From Coriobacteriia bacterium (GTDB lineage Bacteria > Actinomycetota > Coriobacteriia > Coriobacteriales > UBA8131), in NCBI GenBank assembly GCA_009784945.1, contig WQXH01000001.1:23257-87256 (forward strand): a stretch of DNA of 64,000 bases. Reading direction: 5' to 3'. The notes beneath the pieces are model-generated. The model was not told the DNA's origin and did not search any database. It saw only the letters and a list, made by a program, of their open reading frames with translations. Positions within the stretch are counted from its first letter, which is position 1, and each line of letters begins with the position of its first letter. A program made the position numbers and the translations under genes. Positions 40,006-61,180 of the stretch are shown here, in pieces.

Positions 40006-41082
40006 ATGACTGCTGCAAGAACAAGAACAAACAGGCTGATGGTGAAGGAAGTCCCCCTAGGGGCAGGCTCACCGCTTCCACTGCAGTCCATGCTGACCAC
40101 TTCTACTCAGGACGTTTGTGCCTGCCTCGAACAGGTACACCGCTTGCAGGAAGTAGGGTGCCACATAGTGCGCTTGGCGATAGAAAGCTCAAAGGATTTA
40201 GACGGATTCGAGGCTGTGTGCAAAGAAAGTCCTCTGCCCGTAGTAGCAGATATTCATTTTAATCATACACTGGCAATTGAGGCAGCAAAACGAGGAGCAG
40301 CAAAGCTGCGTATAAACCCAGGAAACATCGGCGATGCCCAGCGAGTCAACGCCGTTATTGAAGCAGCAAACAAGGCCGACATCCCCATTAGGATAGGTGT
40401 CAATGCGGGTTCTTTGGAAGAAGATCTCAAAAAGGCACATAATCTCACACTGGCTGAGAAGATGGTTAAGTCTGCCGAGCGTTCGGTTGAGCACTTTGAG
40501 GAGCGCGGTTTTTTTAGCATTGTGCTTTCTGCTAAGGCTTCTGACGTGCCCACCACCATAGAGGTCTACCAACGCCTATCAATGAGCCTTCCTCATATAC
40601 CACTTCACCTGGGGGTGACTGAGGCAGGAACTGCCTGGGAGGGGAGCATACGCTCTGCTGTAGGCATTGGCACCCTGCTGGCTGTTGGCATAGGCGACAC
40701 TCTTCGCGTCTCACTCACAGCTGACCCCATCGAAGAAATTCGCGTAGCTCGCGCCTTGCTCGCGGCACTGGATCTGGGTGCAGACGACCGTGCTACCCTC
40801 ATCAGTTGCCCCTCCTGCTCGCGCTGCAAAGTAGACCTGTTTAGCATTGCCAACACTGTTGAACAACGTCTTGCCGCCATAAAGAAGCCACTCAAGGTTG
40901 CCGTCATGGGCTGTGTGGTAAATGGGCCAGGGGAGGCCGCTGGTGCTGACATAGGCGTAGCCTGCGGCAAAGGAACTGGTGTAATCTTTTCTAAAGGCAA
41001 GGTGCTCTATACTGTAGAGGAAGCACAAATAATTGACGCGCTCCTGAAAGAACTTGAAATCGAGGAAACTACATGCCACTGA
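40006..41082 (+). CDS. ispG: 4-hydroxy-3-methylbut-2-en-1-yl diphosphate synthase
   Basis: VADIHFNH, RINPGNIG, and the C-terminal Fe-S cysteines (CPSCSRC ... GCVVNGPGE). Confidence 0.9.
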   Translation: MTAARTRTNRLMVKEVPLGAGSPLPLQSMLTTSTQDVCACLEQVHRLQEVGCHIVRLAIESSKDLDGFEAVCKESPLPVVADIHFNHTLAIEAAKRGAAKLRINPGNIGDAQRVNAVIEAANKADIPIRIGVNAGSLEEDLKKAHNLTLAEKMVKSAERSVEHFEERGFFSIVLSAKASDVPTTIEVYQRLSMSLPHIPLHLGVTEAGTAWEGSIRSAVGIGTLLAVGIGDTLRVSLTADPIEEIRVARALLAALDLGADDRATLISCPSCSRCKVDLFSIANTVEQRLAAIKKPLKVAVMGCVVNGPGEAAGADIGVACGKGTGVIFSKGKVLYTVEEAQIIDALLKELEIEETTCH

Positions 41083-52934: not shown

Positions 52935-54746
52935 ATGGATGAGATAGTCTTAGATATACTCGAACAGCTTAAAAGCCCCAAGGGACTTGATGACAAGCGC
53001 CTGGCGGCGGTTTTCCGCAGGCACAACAAGGTTCTTGAGCGGGGGAGGCGGCAGTACTCAAAAAAGCGTCTTTTGCCGTACTATCTTAAGATTAAAGAAA
53101 CAGACCCCAAGCTCTGGGTCAGTTGGAACATAGATGAAAATCTAGAGCGTGAGTTTTTAAAAAAGCTCAGGGTTAAGCCACGAAGAACTGCCTCTGGTGT
53201 AGCTACTATTACGGTCATCACAAAGCCATGGAGATGCTCGAGCAACTGCCTGTATTGTCCCAATGACCTCAGAATGCCAAAGAGCTATTTGAGTGATGAG
53301 CCAGCGTGCCAACGTGCTGAGCGGAATTACTTTGATCCCTACCTGCAAGTATCTGCGCGCTTGCGCACCTTGATTCAGATGGGGCATATTACCGACAAAA
53401 TCGAAATGATAGTCCTGGGCGGAACCTGGAGCGACTATCCCGAGGGCTACCAGCTCTGGTTTATGACCGAACTGTATAGAGCGCTGAGTGACGCTGGTCA
53501 AGACATGAGCAAGCATGCTCGCGAGCGGCGGCGGCTCTACAAGGCTCACGACCTGAGCAATGACGAAGATGAGTTGCGTGAGTTTGTAGAGGTCAAGCAG
53601 GGGCTCATCAATCGTGGCCTGCTCAACTACAATCAGGCTGTAGATGAACTCTATGGCAGCCAAAGCGCCTGGGTTCAAGTGTCAAGCCAACAAACTGCAA
53701 GCTTTGAAGAACTCAAGTATCAGCAAGACCGTAACGAAACTGCAAAGCATCGCATGGTAGGACTCGTCATTGAAACCCGACCAGACCTCATTTCTGCCAC
53801 AAGCCTCACCATGCTCAGGCATCTCGGCTGTACCAAGATACAAATGGGAGTACAGAGCCTTAACCCGAGGGTGCTTGAATACAATAACCGAAGCATCAGC
53901 GTAGAGAGTATACGTTCTTCCTTTGCGCTTCTTCGCATTTTTGGCTTCAAGATTCACGCTCACTTCATGGTAAATCTATATGGATCTACTGCCAGCCAAG
54001 ACAAGTTAGACTACGCTCGCTTTGTCAATGACGCAGACTTTATACCCGACGAAGTCAAGTTGTACCCTTGCGCCCTTATTGAAGGAACCCAACTCTGCTT
54101 ACACTACGCAGACAAGAGCTGGCAGCCTTATAGCGAAGAGGAGCTCGTTGACGTACTGGTTGATAACACCTTGCAAACCCCACCCTTTGTGAGGATTTCT
54201 CGGATGATACGAGACTTCTCTGCGCCAGATGTGCTTGCGGGCAACAAAAAAACCAATCTCAGACAACTGGTAGAGCGCACAATAGAACAAAGCAATGAAA
54301 AGATAAGGGAGATCAGGTATCGCGAAATCAGTACCACTAGCCTCGAAACAGATAAACTCGAGCTAGAAGTTCTAGATTACACCAGTTCAAATACTAAGGA
54401 ATACTTTTTGCAATGGGTCACCTCAGATGACCAGATAGCAGGGTTTTTACGTCTATCACTCCCCCTTTTAGGCTTTGTTGCAAAGAACCAAGAATGGCTG
54501 CCAGTAACACCACAAGACGCAATGATTAGAGAAGTGCACATCTACGGAAAAGTAGCTGAATTACAATCGATAGGGGAGGGCGCACAGCATACTGGTTTAG
54601 GCAAGCAGCTTATTGCCACTGCCTGCAATATCGCTCGGGAGCAAGGATATAAGAGACTCAATGTTATCAGCTCAGTGGGCACGAGAGAGTACTACCGAAG
54701 CCTGGGCTTTGAGGACGGCGAGCTTTACCAGCAATTACCTCTCTAA
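52935..54746 (+). CDS. elp3: Elp3-family radical SAM / GNAT enzyme (tRNA U34 carboxymethylation type)
   Basis: KPRRTASGVATITVITKPWRCSSNCLYCPNDLRMPKSYL (Cys triad), GHITDKIEMIVLGGTW, TKIQMGVQS, and the C-terminal GNAT REVHIYGKVAEL...QHTGLGKQLI...ISSVGTREYYRSLGF. These are collinear with eukaryotic/archaeal Elp3 as I recall it. Confidence 0.85.
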   Translation: MDEIVLDILEQLKSPKGLDDKRLAAVFRRHNKVLERGRRQYSKKRLLPYYLKIKETDPKLWVSWNIDENLEREFLKKLRVKPRRTASGVATITVITKPWRCSSNCLYCPNDLRMPKSYLSDEPACQRAERNYFDPYLQVSARLRTLIQMGHITDKIEMIVLGGTWSDYPEGYQLWFMTELYRALSDAGQDMSKHARERRRLYKAHDLSNDEDELREFVEVKQGLINRGLLNYNQAVDELYGSQSAWVQVSSQQTASFEELKYQQDRNETAKHRMVGLVIETRPDLISATSLTMLRHLGCTKIQMGVQSLNPRVLEYNNRSISVESIRSSFALLRIFGFKIHAHFMVNLYGSTASQDKLDYARFVNDADFIPDEVKLYPCALIEGTQLCLHYADKSWQPYSEEELVDVLVDNTLQTPPFVRISRMIRDFSAPDVLAGNKKTNLRQLVERTIEQSNEKIREIRYREISTTSLETDKLELEVLDYTSSNTKEYFLQWVTSDDQIAGFLRLSLPLLGFVAKNQEWLPVTPQDAMIREVHIYGKVAELQSIGEGAQHTGLGKQLIATACNIAREQGYKRLNVISSVGTREYYRSLGFEDGELYQQLPL

Positions 54747-54771: not shown

Positions 54772-55668
54772 TTAAGCGGAAAAAAGATCGGTGCTCAGAT
54801 ACTTCTCGCCTCTGTCTGGAAGAATAACCACCATGACACCGCTCGAAAGCTTTTCTATCTCCCTCACCGCTGCGAGCATGGCTGCCCCACTTGACATGCC
54901 AACAAAAATGCCCTCTTCTTGCACAATGCGCCGTGCCATTTCATAGGCCTCATCGGTATCTATGAGAATGCTGTCGTCTATTTCAGTGATATCATATATC
55001 TCTGGAACGATTGCTTCGGCAAGGCTTTTAAGCCCCTGTATGTAGTGACCTAAAACAGGCTGAGCCTCAATAATCCTCACCGAGGGGTTGCGCTCCTTAA
55101 GCATCATGCCCACTCCCATCAGCGTGCCCGAGGTGCCCAAGGCAGACACAAAATGTGTAATGCGCCCGTTTGTTTGCTCCCAAATCTCCTCAGCAGTAGT
55201 TTTGTAGTGGGCAATCTTATTGTATACATTTGAGAATTGGTTGGGATTGAAGTAAAGTTCGGGATTAGCTTCTACCAGCTCCTTAGTCTTAAGAATTGCG
55301 CCATCGGTGCCCAGGTCGGCGGCGGTGAGGATAATCTCTGCTCCAAAGGCCTTAATCATCTTTTGGCGCTCAATTGACACTGCCGAACTCATCACTATCT
55401 GCACCCGAAAGCCCTTTACAGCCCCTATCATGGCAAGCGCAATGCCCGTATTGCCAGAAGTAGCCTCTATGATGATTTTTCCCTCATCTAAGATTCCATC
55501 AGCTTGCGCCTGCTCCAGCATTTTGAGCGCAATACGATCTTTGATGCTACCGGTAGGGTTAAAGCCCTCTATCTTGGCGTAAAGCTCCACCTGAGGGTTA
55601 GGATTAAGGGCATTAATGCGCACCAAGGGCGTATTTCCTATGGTGTCGAGGATGGTGTCAAATATCAT
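54772..55668 (-). CDS. cysK: Cysteine synthase A (O-acetylserine sulfhydrylase)
   Basis: IGNTPLVRIN, the PLP lysine context NPTGSIKDR, and GTSGT. The internal ATG at 55668 (MIFDTILD) is preferred over 55713. Confidence 0.9.
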   Translation of the reverse strand: MIFDTILDTIGNTPLVRINALNPNPQVELYAKIEGFNPTGSIKDRIALKMLEQAQADGILDEGKIIIEATSGNTGIALAMIGAVKGFRVQIVMSSAVSIERQKMIKAFGAEIILTAADLGTDGAILKTKELVEANPELYFNPNQFSNVYNKIAHYKTTAEEIWEQTNGRITHFVSALGTSGTLMGVGMMLKERNPSVRIIEAQPVLGHYIQGLKSLAEAIVPEIYDITEIDDSILIDTDEAYEMARRIVQEEGIFVGMSSGAAMLAAVREIEKLSSGVMVVILPDRGEKYLSTDLFSA

Positions 55669-55716
55669 AAGTTCGCCTTGTCTCACTTGTAACAACCTGT
55701 TTATTATACTCAAGAT

Positions 55717-55810
55717 AGTGCTAAAATTTGATGGTCAGGCAATAGCCGGGTCCATAGTGGACAACAGAGTAATCTGTGGGACTTCCTTAGTTTGAGGAAG
55801 TCTTTTTTTT
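55717..55810 (+). promoter_or_regulatory. Structured 5' leader of the CDF transporter gene; possible NiCo (czcD-motif)-like metal riboswitch with terminator expression platform
   Basis: The strings are CAGGCAAU (55736..55743), AGCCGGG (55744..55750), hairpin GUCC/GGAC (55750..55762), AAC, hairpin ACAGA-GUAA-UCUGU (55764..55777), then GGGAC (55778..55782). GGGAC is shared with the 5' arm of an intrinsic terminator. These strings and their order resemble conserved junction nucleotides of the czcD/NiCo motif as I remember them, but a P2-equivalent hairpin is not evident. Confidence 0.4.
55779..55810 (+). terminator. Intrinsic terminator 32 nt upstream of the CDF transporter start
   Basis: GACTTCCT (55780..55787) pairs with AGGAAGTC (55795..55802) around a 7-nt loop, followed by T8 (55803..55810). 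It sits in a divergent intergenic region, so it can only act on a + strand leader transcript. Confidence 0.75.
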
Positions 55811-55841
55811 GAGATAGTAATGTGCGCAGGAGGTTAAGCTG

Positions 55842-56903
55842 GTGCAAAAGCATAAAACAAAAGATGTGAGCATCCAGGAGTCTGTGCCGCCTGAGATAAC
55901 TACAGATGCACAAACTTGCAATACAGCAGCGCAACAAACGGCCAAGGAAAAGTCTCGTGTTGCCACACTCTCTGTAATATCAAACAGCTGCCTAACCACT
56001 TCTAAGCTGATAGTTGGCTTTTTGAGCGGCTCGGTGAGTATTTTTTCTGAGGGCATACATTCGGGAATCGATCTCCTTGCTGCTTGTATCGCACTCTTTG
56101 CTGTAAAACAATCCGCCAAACCAGCGGATTCGCGCCACGCCTACGGGCACGGAAAGTTTGAGAACCTGGCTGGCACCATAGAGGCGCTTCTCATCTTCAT
56201 TGCCGTAGTCTTTATCGTAAACGAGGCAGTACAAAAGATTTTTCATATCATCACTGGCAACAGTGGCGAGGTGGGCGATCTGGCGCTGAGTCTTGGACTC
56301 ATCGTCATGGGTGGCTCAGCAGTAGTCAATATTGTCGTCTCTACGCTTTTGATGCGTGTAGCAAAAAGAACCGATTCTGTAGCTTTGGAGGCAGATGCTA
56401 TGCACCTGCGCACCGATGTGTACACCTCTGCAGGCGTATTCTTTGCCCTGCTTATCATTAGGTTTACCGGATGGCATATTTTAGATCCTATTATTGCCCT
56501 CTTTGTGGCTGCTTTGATACTTAAGGCTGCCTATGACCTACTTAAGAAGGCCTTCTTTCCACTGGTTGACATCAGTCTGCCAAAGGAGGAAACTCAAATC
56601 ATTACCGAGGTTCTTGCCCTTCATGATGATAAATTCGTAGAGTTTCATGATTTGCGCACGCGCAAGGCCGGGGCAGATCGACATGTAGATTTGCATCTGG
56701 TAGTCCCTAAGTTTATGTCGGTAGCTCAAATGCACGAGGTTTGTGATGAAATCGAGTTCGATATCAGCAAACGGCTTAGGAGCACACATATATTGATTCA
56801 TGCCGAGCCTTGTAGTATTGACAACAAGCAATGCCCCTATGAAACTGGGTCGAGCGATTCCTGTCAGCACTGCAATAGCCAGCCCCAATCTATGGTTGAG
56901 TAA
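55842..56903 (+). CDS. Cation diffusion facilitator (CzcD/ZitB-like) metal efflux transporter
   Basis: LSGSVSIFSEGIHSGIDLLAA (TM2 metal site), HLRTDVYTS (TM5), and a C-terminal cytoplasmic domain ending in a Cys/His-containing tail. GTG start with GCAGGAGG 8 nt upstream. Confidence 0.85.
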   Translation: MQKHKTKDVSIQESVPPEITTDAQTCNTAAQQTAKEKSRVATLSVISNSCLTTSKLIVGFLSGSVSIFSEGIHSGIDLLAACIALFAVKQSAKPADSRHAYGHGKFENLAGTIEALLIFIAVVFIVNEAVQKIFHIITGNSGEVGDLALSLGLIVMGGSAVVNIVVSTLLMRVAKRTDSVALEADAMHLRTDVYTSAGVFFALLIIRFTGWHILDPIIALFVAALILKAAYDLLKKAFFPLVDISLPKEETQIITEVLALHDDKFVEFHDLRTRKAGADRHVDLHLVVPKFMSVAQMHEVCDEIEFDISKRLRSTHILIHAEPCSIDNKQCPYETGSSDSCQHCNSQPQSMVE

Positions 56904-57798: not shown

Positions 57799-59781
57799 AT
57801 GATAAGTTGCATGGGGCACATTCTCGAAGTTGACCTTTCCAGTGGGATGATTACCAAAACAGCAATCCCTGATGAAATCTATGAGCAGCTTCTTTCTGGC
57901 AAAGGTTTGGGGGCTTGGTATCTCTATAAAAACATACCAGCAGGTGCAGATCCGCTGGGTCCAGATAATGTATTGGGGTTTGTCAGTGGCGCTTTAACGG
58001 GCACCAATGCTCCTATCTGCGGACGCTGGTCAATTGTCACCAAATCTCCTCTCACCGATGGCTGGGGAGATGCAAATTGTGGTGGGAACTTTTCTCCCGC
58101 TATCAAAAAGTGCGGTGTGGATGCCATTTTCTTTAAAGGCATAAGTCAAAAGCCTGTGTACCTTTACGTGGATGACGAGGTATGCGAGCTGCGAGATGCG
58201 GCCGACTACTGGGGACTAGATGCAATAGAGTCAGAAGCAAAGCTTATCCAAGACAACACAACAGGTAAAAAGCCCAGTGTTGCTGTTATTGGCACGGCAG
58301 GGGAGCAACTCTCGCTCATCTCGGGCGTATGCAACGAAGGAGGGCGCATTGCGGCACGCTCTGGCGTTGGAGCAGTCATGGGAAGTAAAAACCTCAAGGC
58401 GCTCGTGCTCTTAGGCTCCAAAAAAATTGCGTGTTTTGATAAAAAGACTATGAATGCATTTAACAAGGAGCTTGCTGTTAAGATAAAAAAGGCGTATCCG
58501 GCTGGCTTTATGAAGGGCGCAACCTACGGACTGCTCGGCACGGTTTTTGGCAAGTTACCCATCAACATGCCACTTGACGGCTCTATCAACATTGGGCCTT
58601 TGAGCAAGTGGGGCTCCTCTGTTAATACCGTCTTAGGAGTTCAAAGCGGCGATGGTCCCGTCAAAAACTGGGCAGGGAGCCCCAAAGATGCCAAGTGGGT
58701 CTCAAAAAAATACAATCCGGACAGACTCTTTGATAGAGAGATACAAAAATACAACTGCTATTCGTGCACGCTGGGCTGCGGTGCTGTGGTTAACACCAAG
58801 GATCTCTACGATGGAAAATATGAGCACACTCATAAGCCTGAGTACGAGACGGTGGATGCCTTTGGCCCTCTATTGCTTAATGATAATCTGGATTCGGTGC
58901 TGCGGATAAATGAGATTACCAATCGGGCGGGCATAGATACTATCTCGGTAGGCAATACGGTGGCTTATGCCATTGAGTGTTATGAAAACGGTTTGATTAC
59001 CAATCAACAGACGGGAGGCCTCAAGCTTACCTGGGGCAATCATCAAGACATTGTCAAGCTTGTTGAGATGATCATTGCACGAGAAGGCATAGGTGACCTG
59101 CTGGCTGACGGTGTAAAAAAGGCCGCTGAGCATTTTGGTCAACAGACGCAACAATACGCCATGCACATAGGGGGGCAGGAGCCTGGTCTCCATGAGCCCC
59201 GGCAAGACTTGCAGCTTGCTGTTCACTTCATGACTGATCCAGCGCCAGGCAAACATACCATTGGGTCTGGCATTGCATATGGCAACATGGCACTTTGGGA
59301 TGTATGCAGCTGGGCTCCTGTAGCCAGACCAGAAAACAAGAAAAAGGCTCGAATGCCCAGCGAGACGCTGGGCAAGGCTTCTGCCGCCACTGCCTGCTAT
59401 ACGATGTTGGTGGACGGAGCAGGCGGCTGCTACTATGGACAGATTATAGGTGCACACAACTGGAAACTGGTTTCTTACCTCAACACTGCAACCGGCTGGA
59501 GCAAGACAGGCGATGAATACATAGAAATTGGCAAAAGGATACAAACACTCAGAACCCTCTTTAACGTTAAGCATGGCGTCATGCCAGCAAGCAGGGAGCT
59601 TCCCAAAAGGCTTGAAGGCAAGCCCCCTCTCAGAAGTGGGCCGCTCAAGGGTGCCACTATCGACACCAAGGAACAGGCAAAGCTTTACTGGAAAGAAATG
59701 GGTTGCGATATGAGCACCGGAGCACCTCTTGATGAGACGGTGGCTCAATTAGGGATACCCGAACTGCTGGGCAGGACATGA
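57799..59781 (+). CDS. aor: Aldehyde:ferredoxin oxidoreductase (tungstopterin AOR family)
   Basis: ILEVDLSSGMITKTAIPDE...GKGLGAWYL N-terminal domain, 660 aa, and a Cys-containing Fe-S/pterin region (CYSCTLGC). AAGGAG lies 6 nt before ATG 57799. Confidence 0.9.
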   Translation: MISCMGHILEVDLSSGMITKTAIPDEIYEQLLSGKGLGAWYLYKNIPAGADPLGPDNVLGFVSGALTGTNAPICGRWSIVTKSPLTDGWGDANCGGNFSPAIKKCGVDAIFFKGISQKPVYLYVDDEVCELRDAADYWGLDAIESEAKLIQDNTTGKKPSVAVIGTAGEQLSLISGVCNEGGRIAARSGVGAVMGSKNLKALVLLGSKKIACFDKKTMNAFNKELAVKIKKAYPAGFMKGATYGLLGTVFGKLPINMPLDGSINIGPLSKWGSSVNTVLGVQSGDGPVKNWAGSPKDAKWVSKKYNPDRLFDREIQKYNCYSCTLGCGAVVNTKDLYDGKYEHTHKPEYETVDAFGPLLLNDNLDSVLRINEITNRAGIDTISVGNTVAYAIECYENGLITNQQTGGLKLTWGNHQDIVKLVEMIIAREGIGDLLADGVKKAAEHFGQQTQQYAMHIGGQEPGLHEPRQDLQLAVHFMTDPAPGKHTIGSGIAYGNMALWDVCSWAPVARPENKKKARMPSETLGKASAATACYTMLVDGAGGCYYGQIIGAHNWKLVSYLNTATGWSKTGDEYIEIGKRIQTLRTLFNVKHGVMPASRELPKRLEGKPPLRSGPLKGATIDTKEQAKLYWKEMGCDMSTGAPLDETVAQLGIPELLGRT

Positions 59782-60694: not shown

Positions 60695-60770
60695 GGGCCG
60701 TTAGCTTAGTTGGTAGAGCAGGGGACTCTTAATCCCAAGGTCCGGGGTTCGAGTCCCCGACGGCCCACCA
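60695..60770 (+). tRNA. tRNA-Lys (anticodon CTT), CCA encoded
   Basis: Manual cloverleaf: acceptor GGGCCGT/ACGGCCC, D arm GCTT-AGTTGGTA-GAGC, anticodon loop CT-CTT-AA, T arm CGGGG-TTCGAGT-CCCCG, discriminator A, then CCA. 76 nt. The 27:43 position is a G-A mismatch. Confidence 0.9.

Positions 60771-61103: not shown

Positions 61104-61180
<77 letters not shown>

Follow-up and report, generated by a model that had tools for sequence, protein, structure and literature searches.

A trimmed-down leader of probable NiCo (czcD) riboswitch identity upstream of a CDF exporter gene in a Coriobacteriia bacterium

Background

Within the window (the whole stretch of 64,000 nt of Coriobacteriia DNA that was analysed), a 173-nt spacer (positions 55669–55841) separates a cysK gene on the minus strand from a plus-strand gene coding for a CDF-family metal exporter, raising the question of whether the exporter gene is controlled by a metal-sensing leader RNA, and if so, of which class. 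A preliminary description of the spacer had suggested a NiCo (czcD)-like riboswitch, possibly a reduced variant, with an unrelated attenuator as the alternative. Riboswitches of the NiCo class lie 5′ of metal-efflux genes, which code for CDF/czcD proteins or P-type ATPases, and bind Ni2+, Co2+, and Fe2+ cooperatively at approximately micromolar concentrations, with a conformational change. The segment 55733–55783 of the plus strand folds into a four-helix junction with the junction nucleotides of the NiCo (czcD) class, and we consider it very probable that the leader is a metal-sensing riboswitch of this class and that it serves the CDF exporter gene downstream as an ON switch at the level of transcription. 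It is a trimmed-down variant of the known class, from which it departs in a sub-threshold Rfam score, a minimal P2 helix, and a G at position 9.

Results and discussion

Genes and expression signals around the spacer

The spacer is bounded by the divergent gene of a CysK-like PLP enzyme (54772–55668, minus strand; PALP domain, ATG at the complement end 55668), which lies outside the switch, and by the CDF gene (55842–56903, plus strand, GTG start at 55842), whose product of 353 aa contains the Pfam domains Cation_efflux and ZT_dimer; both neighbours had been named correctly in the preliminary description. The sequence AGGAGG (55828–55833, plus strand) is readable as a Shine-Dalgarno site 8 nt 5′ of the GTG codon, and 31 nt separate this start codon from the end of the terminator discussed below. 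A consensus scan, in which the count of promoter-like sites was not above shuffle expectation, returned the site TTGTCT, 18 nt, TATTAT (55678–55707, plus strand); judged from this site, the leader would start at approximately 55714–55717.

The exporter scores 244 bits with TIGR01297. Its closest equivalog models are those of MntE and FieF, both below cut-off, and the NCBIfam models of ZitB and DmeF score much lower, none being at cut-off. HxxxD motifs are present where TM2 (HSGID) and TM5 (HLRTD) are expected, and the C-terminal tail (residues ~320–353) is rich in Cys and His (HAEPCSIDNKQCPYETGSSDSCQHCNSQ). The 3′ end of the CDF gene, whose stop lies at 56903, shares 14 nt (56890–56903) with the 3′ end of a convergent ThiF-family gene (249 aa, minus strand, ending at 56890), leaving no space for a terminator between them. 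An ELP3-like radical-SAM/GNAT protein is encoded upstream of cysK (52935–54746, plus strand), and the order ELP3-like/cysK/CDF is common to the window and locus L081 of a Coriobacteriia MAG. Downstream of the ThiF-family gene, a 660-aa ORF (57799–59781, plus strand) codes for a putative aldehyde:ferredoxin oxidoreductase, followed by two tRNA genes (60695–60767 and 61104–61177, plus strand).

The aptamer fold and its junction nucleotides

The helices P2, P3, and P4 are predicted in the MFE fold as well as in the centroid fold and, together with P1, frame a four-way junction. P2, of which the preliminary description had found no convincing form, is a minimal hairpin of three base pairs (GGC/GCC, 55738–55740 with 55745–55747) capped by the loop AAUA; with −2.6 kcal/mol for the 10 nt of the hairpin alone and −4.0 kcal/mol with flanking bases, it is predicted to be marginally stable. 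P3 consists of GUCCA, the loop UAG, and UGGAC (55750–55754 with 55758–55762), and P4 of ACAGA, the loop GUAA, and UCUGU (55764–55768 with 55773–55777). The strings listed in the preliminary description (CAGGCAAUAGCCGGG, GUCC-AUAGU-GGAC, ACAGA-GUAA-UCUGU, and GGGAC) are all present; two of the connections between them were misread, as the separate G placed between AGCCGGG and GUCC is a duplicate of the third G of GGG, with which P3 begins, and as “AAC” between P3 and P4 is the single A55763 between GGAC and ACAGA.

In the crystal structure of the class, metal is bound by A9, G40, G41, G42, G82, and G83, both G-triplets (G40–G42 and G81–G83) being described as metal ligands; C11-G83, A12·G40, G42-C55, and A56·G81 are the terminal pairs, A12 and A56 making the terminal G·A pairs of P2 and P4, respectively (bioRxiv 10.1101/2025.08.02.668262). 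All structurally named junction nucleotides, i.e., C11, A12, G40–G42, C55, A56, G81–G83, A84, and C85, are present in the spacer. In crystal numbering, C11 and A12 correspond to positions 55736 and 55737, the J2/3 triplet G40–G42 to 55748–55750 (G55750 also starting P3), A56, the partner of G81, to 55763, G81–G83 to 55778–55780, A84 to 55781, and C85 to 55782. A55737 and A55763 are invariant alignment columns, and both G-triplets are invariant among the relatives with an equally short P2 (the mini-P2 group, see below).

Position 9 differs. An A is found there in the Rfam consensus and in the crystal structure, whereas the Rfam alignment of the P1 5′ strand (G-G9-U10-C11, 55733–55736) puts G55734 at this place. 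The N7 of A9 is an inner-sphere ligand, together with G40, of Co3 in the third metal site of the crystal (bioRxiv 10.1101/2025.08.02.668262); a G still offers an N7, so that the third site may persist.

For P1, two registers were compared. The outer register of the Rfam model (GAUG/CUUC, three of four pairs formed in the window) is only 57% paired across the relatives and was discarded. A continuous register RGUC/GACU fits better, with C11-G83 in 39/40, U10-A84 in 38/38, G9-C85 in 36/37, and R8-U86 in 33/37 leaders (16 A-U, 16 G-U, 1 U-G). This register is without covariation, GUC/GAC being invariant in the 37–40 leaders compared, so that the agreement is a fit and no proof. Since G9-U10 can pair with C85 and A84, P1 of the window can be read as a continuous short helix of four base pairs without internal loop, putatively formed by 55733–55736 and 55780–55783.

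Rfam and motif scores

The one credible match in an Rfam scan of 55400–56100 (701 nt; E ≤ 10) was NiCo (RF02683), at 55721–55786 over the full model (1–96 of 96) with 28.7 bits and E 3e-4. This comparison had been proposed in the preliminary description, and its outcome supports the riboswitch assignment made there. The score falls 8 bits short of the NiCo gathering score of 37 bits, which is an operational threshold and not a structural feature. The deficit arises because 21 inner P2 positions of the model are reduced to 2 nt in the spacer, and because of the A9/g10 substitutions, “GAgC” before AGGC reading “GGUC”. A scan of the whole window at gathering thresholds accordingly reports the two tRNAs alone and no riboswitch, so that default annotation would miss the element.

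The window contains a single copy of the motif CAGGC-N4-GCYGGG...CAG...CUGYGGGAC, and none of 100 shuffles contains it. A covariance model built from 16 relatives, with the window left out (R2), matches 55722–55788 with 82.3 bits (E 1.6e-20) in a search over all 64 kb. The next-best R2 match, at 40045–40109 on the minus strand (13.4 bits, E 0.21), was considered as a second copy and rejected as noise.

The terminator and the switching strand

The arms GACUUCCU (55780–55787) and AGGAAGUC (55795–55802), followed by T8 (55803–55810), belong to an intrinsic terminator (55778–55810, plus strand) that was identified by terminator scan and folding, the only plus-strand site reported by the scan. Its stem comprises 12 pairs (55778–55789 with 55793–55804) and its loop is GUU. 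The terminator had been described before as lying between cysK and the CDF gene just 5′ of the Shine-Dalgarno site, with GGGAC in its 5′ arm; both statements hold, and the stem is longer than first drawn. Across the 1-kb region, terminator-like sites are no more numerous than in shuffles (one found, 1.3 expected), so that support for the terminator comes from its conservation in relatives: hairpins that start with GGGAC and end in a U-run, their 3′ arms carrying substitutions, occur in almost every mini-P2 relative, the exceptions being L100, which is cut by the contig end, and L092, which has a run of only four U.

The 5′ arm (55778–55789) includes the invariant GGGAC within GGGACU (55778–55783), that is, the second G-triplet (G81–G83), A84, and the P1 3′ strand, which together make up the switching strand. 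Aptamer junction and terminator thus exclude each other. Since the terminator fold is lower in energy (−29.3 kcal/mol) than the aptamer with continuous P1 (−16.9 kcal/mol), the default state is OFF, i.e., termination, and metal bound at the junction would have to act during transcription for read-through to occur.

A competing hairpin is also found in the Peptococcaceae/Desulfotomaculia leaders L010 (1419–1560), L014 (1363–1500), L013, L032, and L050, where it is followed by a short or interrupted U-run and, directly thereafter, by GGAGG. Translation may be the level at which these leaders act, or termination may be coupled to control of the Shine-Dalgarno site; the terminator of the window, in contrast, is clean.

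A terminator-competing ON logic has been published for the NiCo class (bioRxiv 10.1101/2025.08.02.668262), members of which sense Fe2+, Co2+, and Ni2+ near 1 μM, Fe2+ being argued to be the physiological ligand (PMC9389577). By analogy, a leader starting at about 55715 would form the P2, P3, and P4 hairpins. When metal is scarce, GGGACUUCCUUA (55778–55789) would pair with 55793–55804, and the resulting terminator with its U8 tract would stop transcription before the gene. When Fe2+, Co2+, or Ni2+ rises, ions would bind the G-triplets 55748–55750 and 55778–55780 at the four-way junction, lock P1 (55733–55736 with 55780–55783), and keep GGGAC from the terminator; with the terminator blocked, RNA polymerase would read through into the exporter gene. 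The metal response of this RNA, and the choice among the three ions, are thus predicted from the class.

Relatives of the leader and covariation

Homologues of the CDF protein number in the thousands, and the closest of them (63–70% identical) stem from metagenomes, Coriobacteriia/Eggerthellaceae MAGs, and Desulfosporosinus. Three sets of loci (designated L with a number) were compared: 80 from a genome collection; ten metagenome contigs whose CDF proteins are the nearest homologues, together with the contig of the window itself; and 17 matches of a metagenome scan for the mini-P2 motif. Thirteen of these 17 matches are real leaders (11 distinct sequences), and the other four (L090/L103, L094, and L095) were discarded as false positives, being high-GC, apparently coding, and without terminator.

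At least 17 distinct mini-P2 relatives lie 5′ of related CDF genes and keep both the mini-P2 and the terminator. The CDF proteins of 16 of them are about 63–70% identical to that of the window; in L096, the element precedes a CDF gene of a different clade and the terminator is of a different design. The leader signature CAGGC-NNNN-GCYGGG occurs in L082, L083, L085, L088, L089, L092, L093, L096–L100, and L105–L108, with AAUA, GAUA, UAUA, AACA, AAAC, AAAA, GAAA, or GAUU as P2 loop. The genes upstream of mini-P2 loci vary (tRNAs, EF-Tu, an HTH regulator, TetR, CysK), and the differing contexts of L082, L083, L085, and L105–L108 indicate that the RNA travels with the exporter gene. A covariance model built from 13 mini-P2 sequences (R1) recovered 40 elements from 100 sources, all located directly 5′ of a CDF start.

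Comparison of the homologous spacers, the second check that had been proposed, revealed covariation in P2, P3, and P4. Across the 40 leaders, P2 is 99% paired, with GC 26, GU 12, and AU 1 at the first pair, GC 37 and AU 1 at the second, and CG 31 and UA 5 at the third. The first pair varies between G-C, G-U, and A-U within the mini-P2 group, and compensatory changes affect all three pairs across the wider family of CDF leaders. P3 is 91% paired, with changes on both sides at four of five pairs. P4 is 94% paired and likewise shows compensatory changes, its first pair being G-C in 23 leaders, G-U in 15, and A-U in one (the window), and its third pair G-C in 20, A-U in 15, and G-U in 5. The covariation score of 0.321 was reached in none of 500 shuffles (0.178 ± 0.011), and pairing fell to 27–42% when the 3′ partners were slid as a control; the 40-sequence alignment was fitted to the model and thereby favours the structure, and MAFFT alignments show the same substitutions. 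The leader is thus homologous to the NiCo class in sequence and structure, with conserved architecture and conserved association with an efflux gene.

The element is not universal in this neighbourhood. L081 (1437–1560) and L001 (1401–1520) represent the closest syntenic genome (Coriobacteriia MAG WRBR01000026.1; CDF 69% identical), and their short cysK–CDF spacer contains no NiCo-like element. The syntenic locus L106 (329–588), which stems from the sample of the window (ERZ27264051), has one. Presence or absence of the riboswitch therefore differs among close relatives, and its control is dispensable where it is missing.

Many mini-P2 leaders have the extended −10-like sequence TGGTAYYTT about 16–20 nt 5′ of GUCAGGC (L082, 1355–1375; L085, 385–400; L097; L099; L107, 360–375; L108, 1030–1045), where the window has TATTAT/TATACT (55702–55710). 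Its position would imply that transcripts of these relatives begin only about 10 nt before P1. A further variation concerns J2/3 of CDF leaders from Syntrophomonas/Syntrophomonadaceae, the first G of which is replaced by A or C (ACCAGG in L008, 1344–1410, L015, 1358–1425, and L028, 1360–1425; ACUCGG in L017, 1353–1419, and L025, 1353–1418), while the remaining fold and the terminator are kept. The replaced base is equivalent to G40, which binds metal and pairs with A12, and these leaders may represent a further variant with altered metal binding.

A series of short-P2 leaders with G at position 9

Among the leaders of this CDF clade, P2 forms a series from three base pairs through 5–8 to 10 or more, with the window at the minimal end: P2 extends over about 10 bp in the Rfam model and in the construct that was crystallized, and over 3 bp with the loop AAUA here. 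G9-U10 occurs in all 36 short-P2 leaders, and A9 is kept in the four long-P2 leaders, which are from Bacteroidales (L059, L060, L075) and Actinomycetes (L056). The Bacteroidales long-P2 leaders pass the Rfam threshold with 54–56 bits, L056 scores 30.6 bits, and the short-P2 “GUCAGGC” leaders score 23–30 bits or go unreported.

In the NiCo class, the helices contact each other only via the junction, and folding proceeds without long-range tertiary contacts; the tips of P2 and P4 can be replaced by foreign aptamers, the chimeras keeping an EC50 for Co2+ of 0.84 μM (PMC7962493). These properties make a shortened P2 plausible. The stability of P2 nevertheless matters, as the M3 mismatch mutant is inactive (PMC9389577).

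Full-text searches returned no description of a minimal-P2 or G9 czcD subtype; as the literature was covered incompletely, this speaks weakly for novelty, and specialists may already be aware of short-P2 members. As a conjecture of fairly low likelihood, the “GUCAGGC” leaders with G9-U10 and short to minimal P2 could form a distinct and widespread natural czcD subclass of anaerobic Firmicutes and Coriobacteriia-like bacteria that falls systematically below the Rfam threshold, and whose ion number or metal window (e.g., Fe2+ in strict anaerobes) may differ from those of Eba, Lmo, and Cce.

Alternative readings

Several observations count against the NiCo reading, namely the sub-threshold score, G9, the marginal P2, the poorly conserved outer P1, the missing element in L081 and L001, and a promoter recognized as a consensus match; with all of these weighed, we continue to hold the assignment with considerable confidence.

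The alternative that fares best would keep the NiCo descent and change the function: G9, U10-A84, and the minimal P2 may have shifted metal stoichiometry or selectivity (e.g., two sites instead of three, or Zn2+/Mn2+), making the leader a functionally distinct subclass. The strict association of G9-U10 with short P2, set against four long-P2 forms that keep A9 5′ of the same CDF clade, would agree with such a shift, as would the role of A9 as Co3 ligand, the consistent scores of 23–30 bits as against 54–56 for canonical leaders, and the greater proximity of the exporter to the MntE/FieF models than to those of ZitB/DmeF. However, the six G ligands of both triplets are invariant, the N7 of G may leave the third site unchanged, the regulated gene family is that of canonical members, and the length of peripheral helices often varies within riboswitch classes. 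We therefore regard a functional shift as unlikely.

A decayed NiCo relic that no longer senses metal, its terminator serving as a constitutive attenuator that lowers CDF expression, would account for the truncated P2 and the sub-threshold score, and absence of the element from the closest syntenic relative suggests a relaxed need for it. But every junction nucleotide is kept in at least 17 diverged copies, whose CDF proteins are mostly 63–70% identical to that of the window, the mini-P2 is maintained through G-C/G-U/A-U substitutions, P3 and P4 show compensatory changes, and the overlap with the terminator is preserved. Such constraint disfavours decay, which appears very improbable.

An unrelated leader (a protein- or tRNA-dependent attenuator, or another RNA family) that resembles NiCo by chance, the alternative raised in the preliminary description, is barely credible: the overlapping Rfam matches that might suggest one, bglG-cis-reg (16.3 bits, E 4.2) and L10_leader (15.3 bits, E 6.1), are noise far under their gathering scores of 80 and 44 bits, as is snoZ266 (E above 4, score far under gathering), the NiCo-specific motif is missing from all shuffles, and P2 shortens gradually from the canonical long form through 5–8 bp to 3 bp, always 5′ of one CDF clade.

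Implications

The basic picture of the NiCo class, to which we assign the leader, is unchanged by these findings. Default Rfam annotation under-counts the class, since 36 of the 40 detectable leaders of one CDF clade stay below the gathering score, and a regulator is thereby missing from the metal-homeostasis regulons of Desulfosporosinus-like bacteria, Peptococcaceae, Syntrophomonadaceae, and Coriobacteriia-like gut bacteria. If the conjecture of a subclass should be true, the 3-bp P2 would make the aptamer of the window, about 51 nt long when both P1 strands are included, the smallest natural one of the NiCo class. An aptamer of this size tests the view that the junction alone matters for metal sensing, and may provide a compact scaffold for Fe/Co/Ni biosensors. 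The invariant A9-to-G exchange at a ligand position defined by the crystal is a natural probe for the role of the third metal site, and bears on the question of whether Fe2+ is the physiological ligand.

Comparison with known systems

The leader shares with canonical NiCo RNAs (RF02683; crystal structure 4RUM from an Erysipelotrichaceae bacterium; Eba, Lmo, and Cce as studied members) an arrangement of four helices about a four-way junction, the strings C-A-GGC...GCC-GGG and C-A-[P4]-GGG-A-C at that junction, the location 5′ of a CDF exporter gene, and a terminator that competes with GGGAC/P1 3′ strand. It differs from them in P2, which has about 10 bp with a bulge in the canonical form and 3 bp with a 4-nt loop in the window, and in P1, where A9 and g10, part of an internal loop opposite A84, are replaced by G9 and U10.

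Closer counterparts are the short-P2 “GUCAGGC” leaders of Peptococcaceae, Desulfotomaculia, Desulfosporosinus-like bacteria, and Syntrophomonadaceae (L006–L050, L068, L089, L093, and others), which have the G9-U10 type of P1, the CDF clade, and Rfam scores of 23–30 bits in common with the window; CDF identity is 47–56% for the loci of the genome collection and about 65% for L089 (P0058). Most of them have a P2 of 5–8 bp and a P4 of the CGG/CCG type, whereas the window, together with L010 and L014, marks the 3-bp extreme. Their expression platforms, in which the P4 3′ strand and GGGAC pair with a longer downstream arm, are unlike that of the window.

Like the leader in the window, as interpreted here, the yybP-ykoY (Mn2+) riboswitch is built on a four-way junction, senses metal, and switches on a metal exporter. 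The Rfam scan of 55400–56100 gave no yybP-ykoY match at E ≤ 10. The two classes differ in architecture, as yybP-ykoY has docked helices and a distal Mn2+ site, whereas NiCo RNAs bind metal at the junction (bioRxiv 10.1101/2025.08.02.668262).
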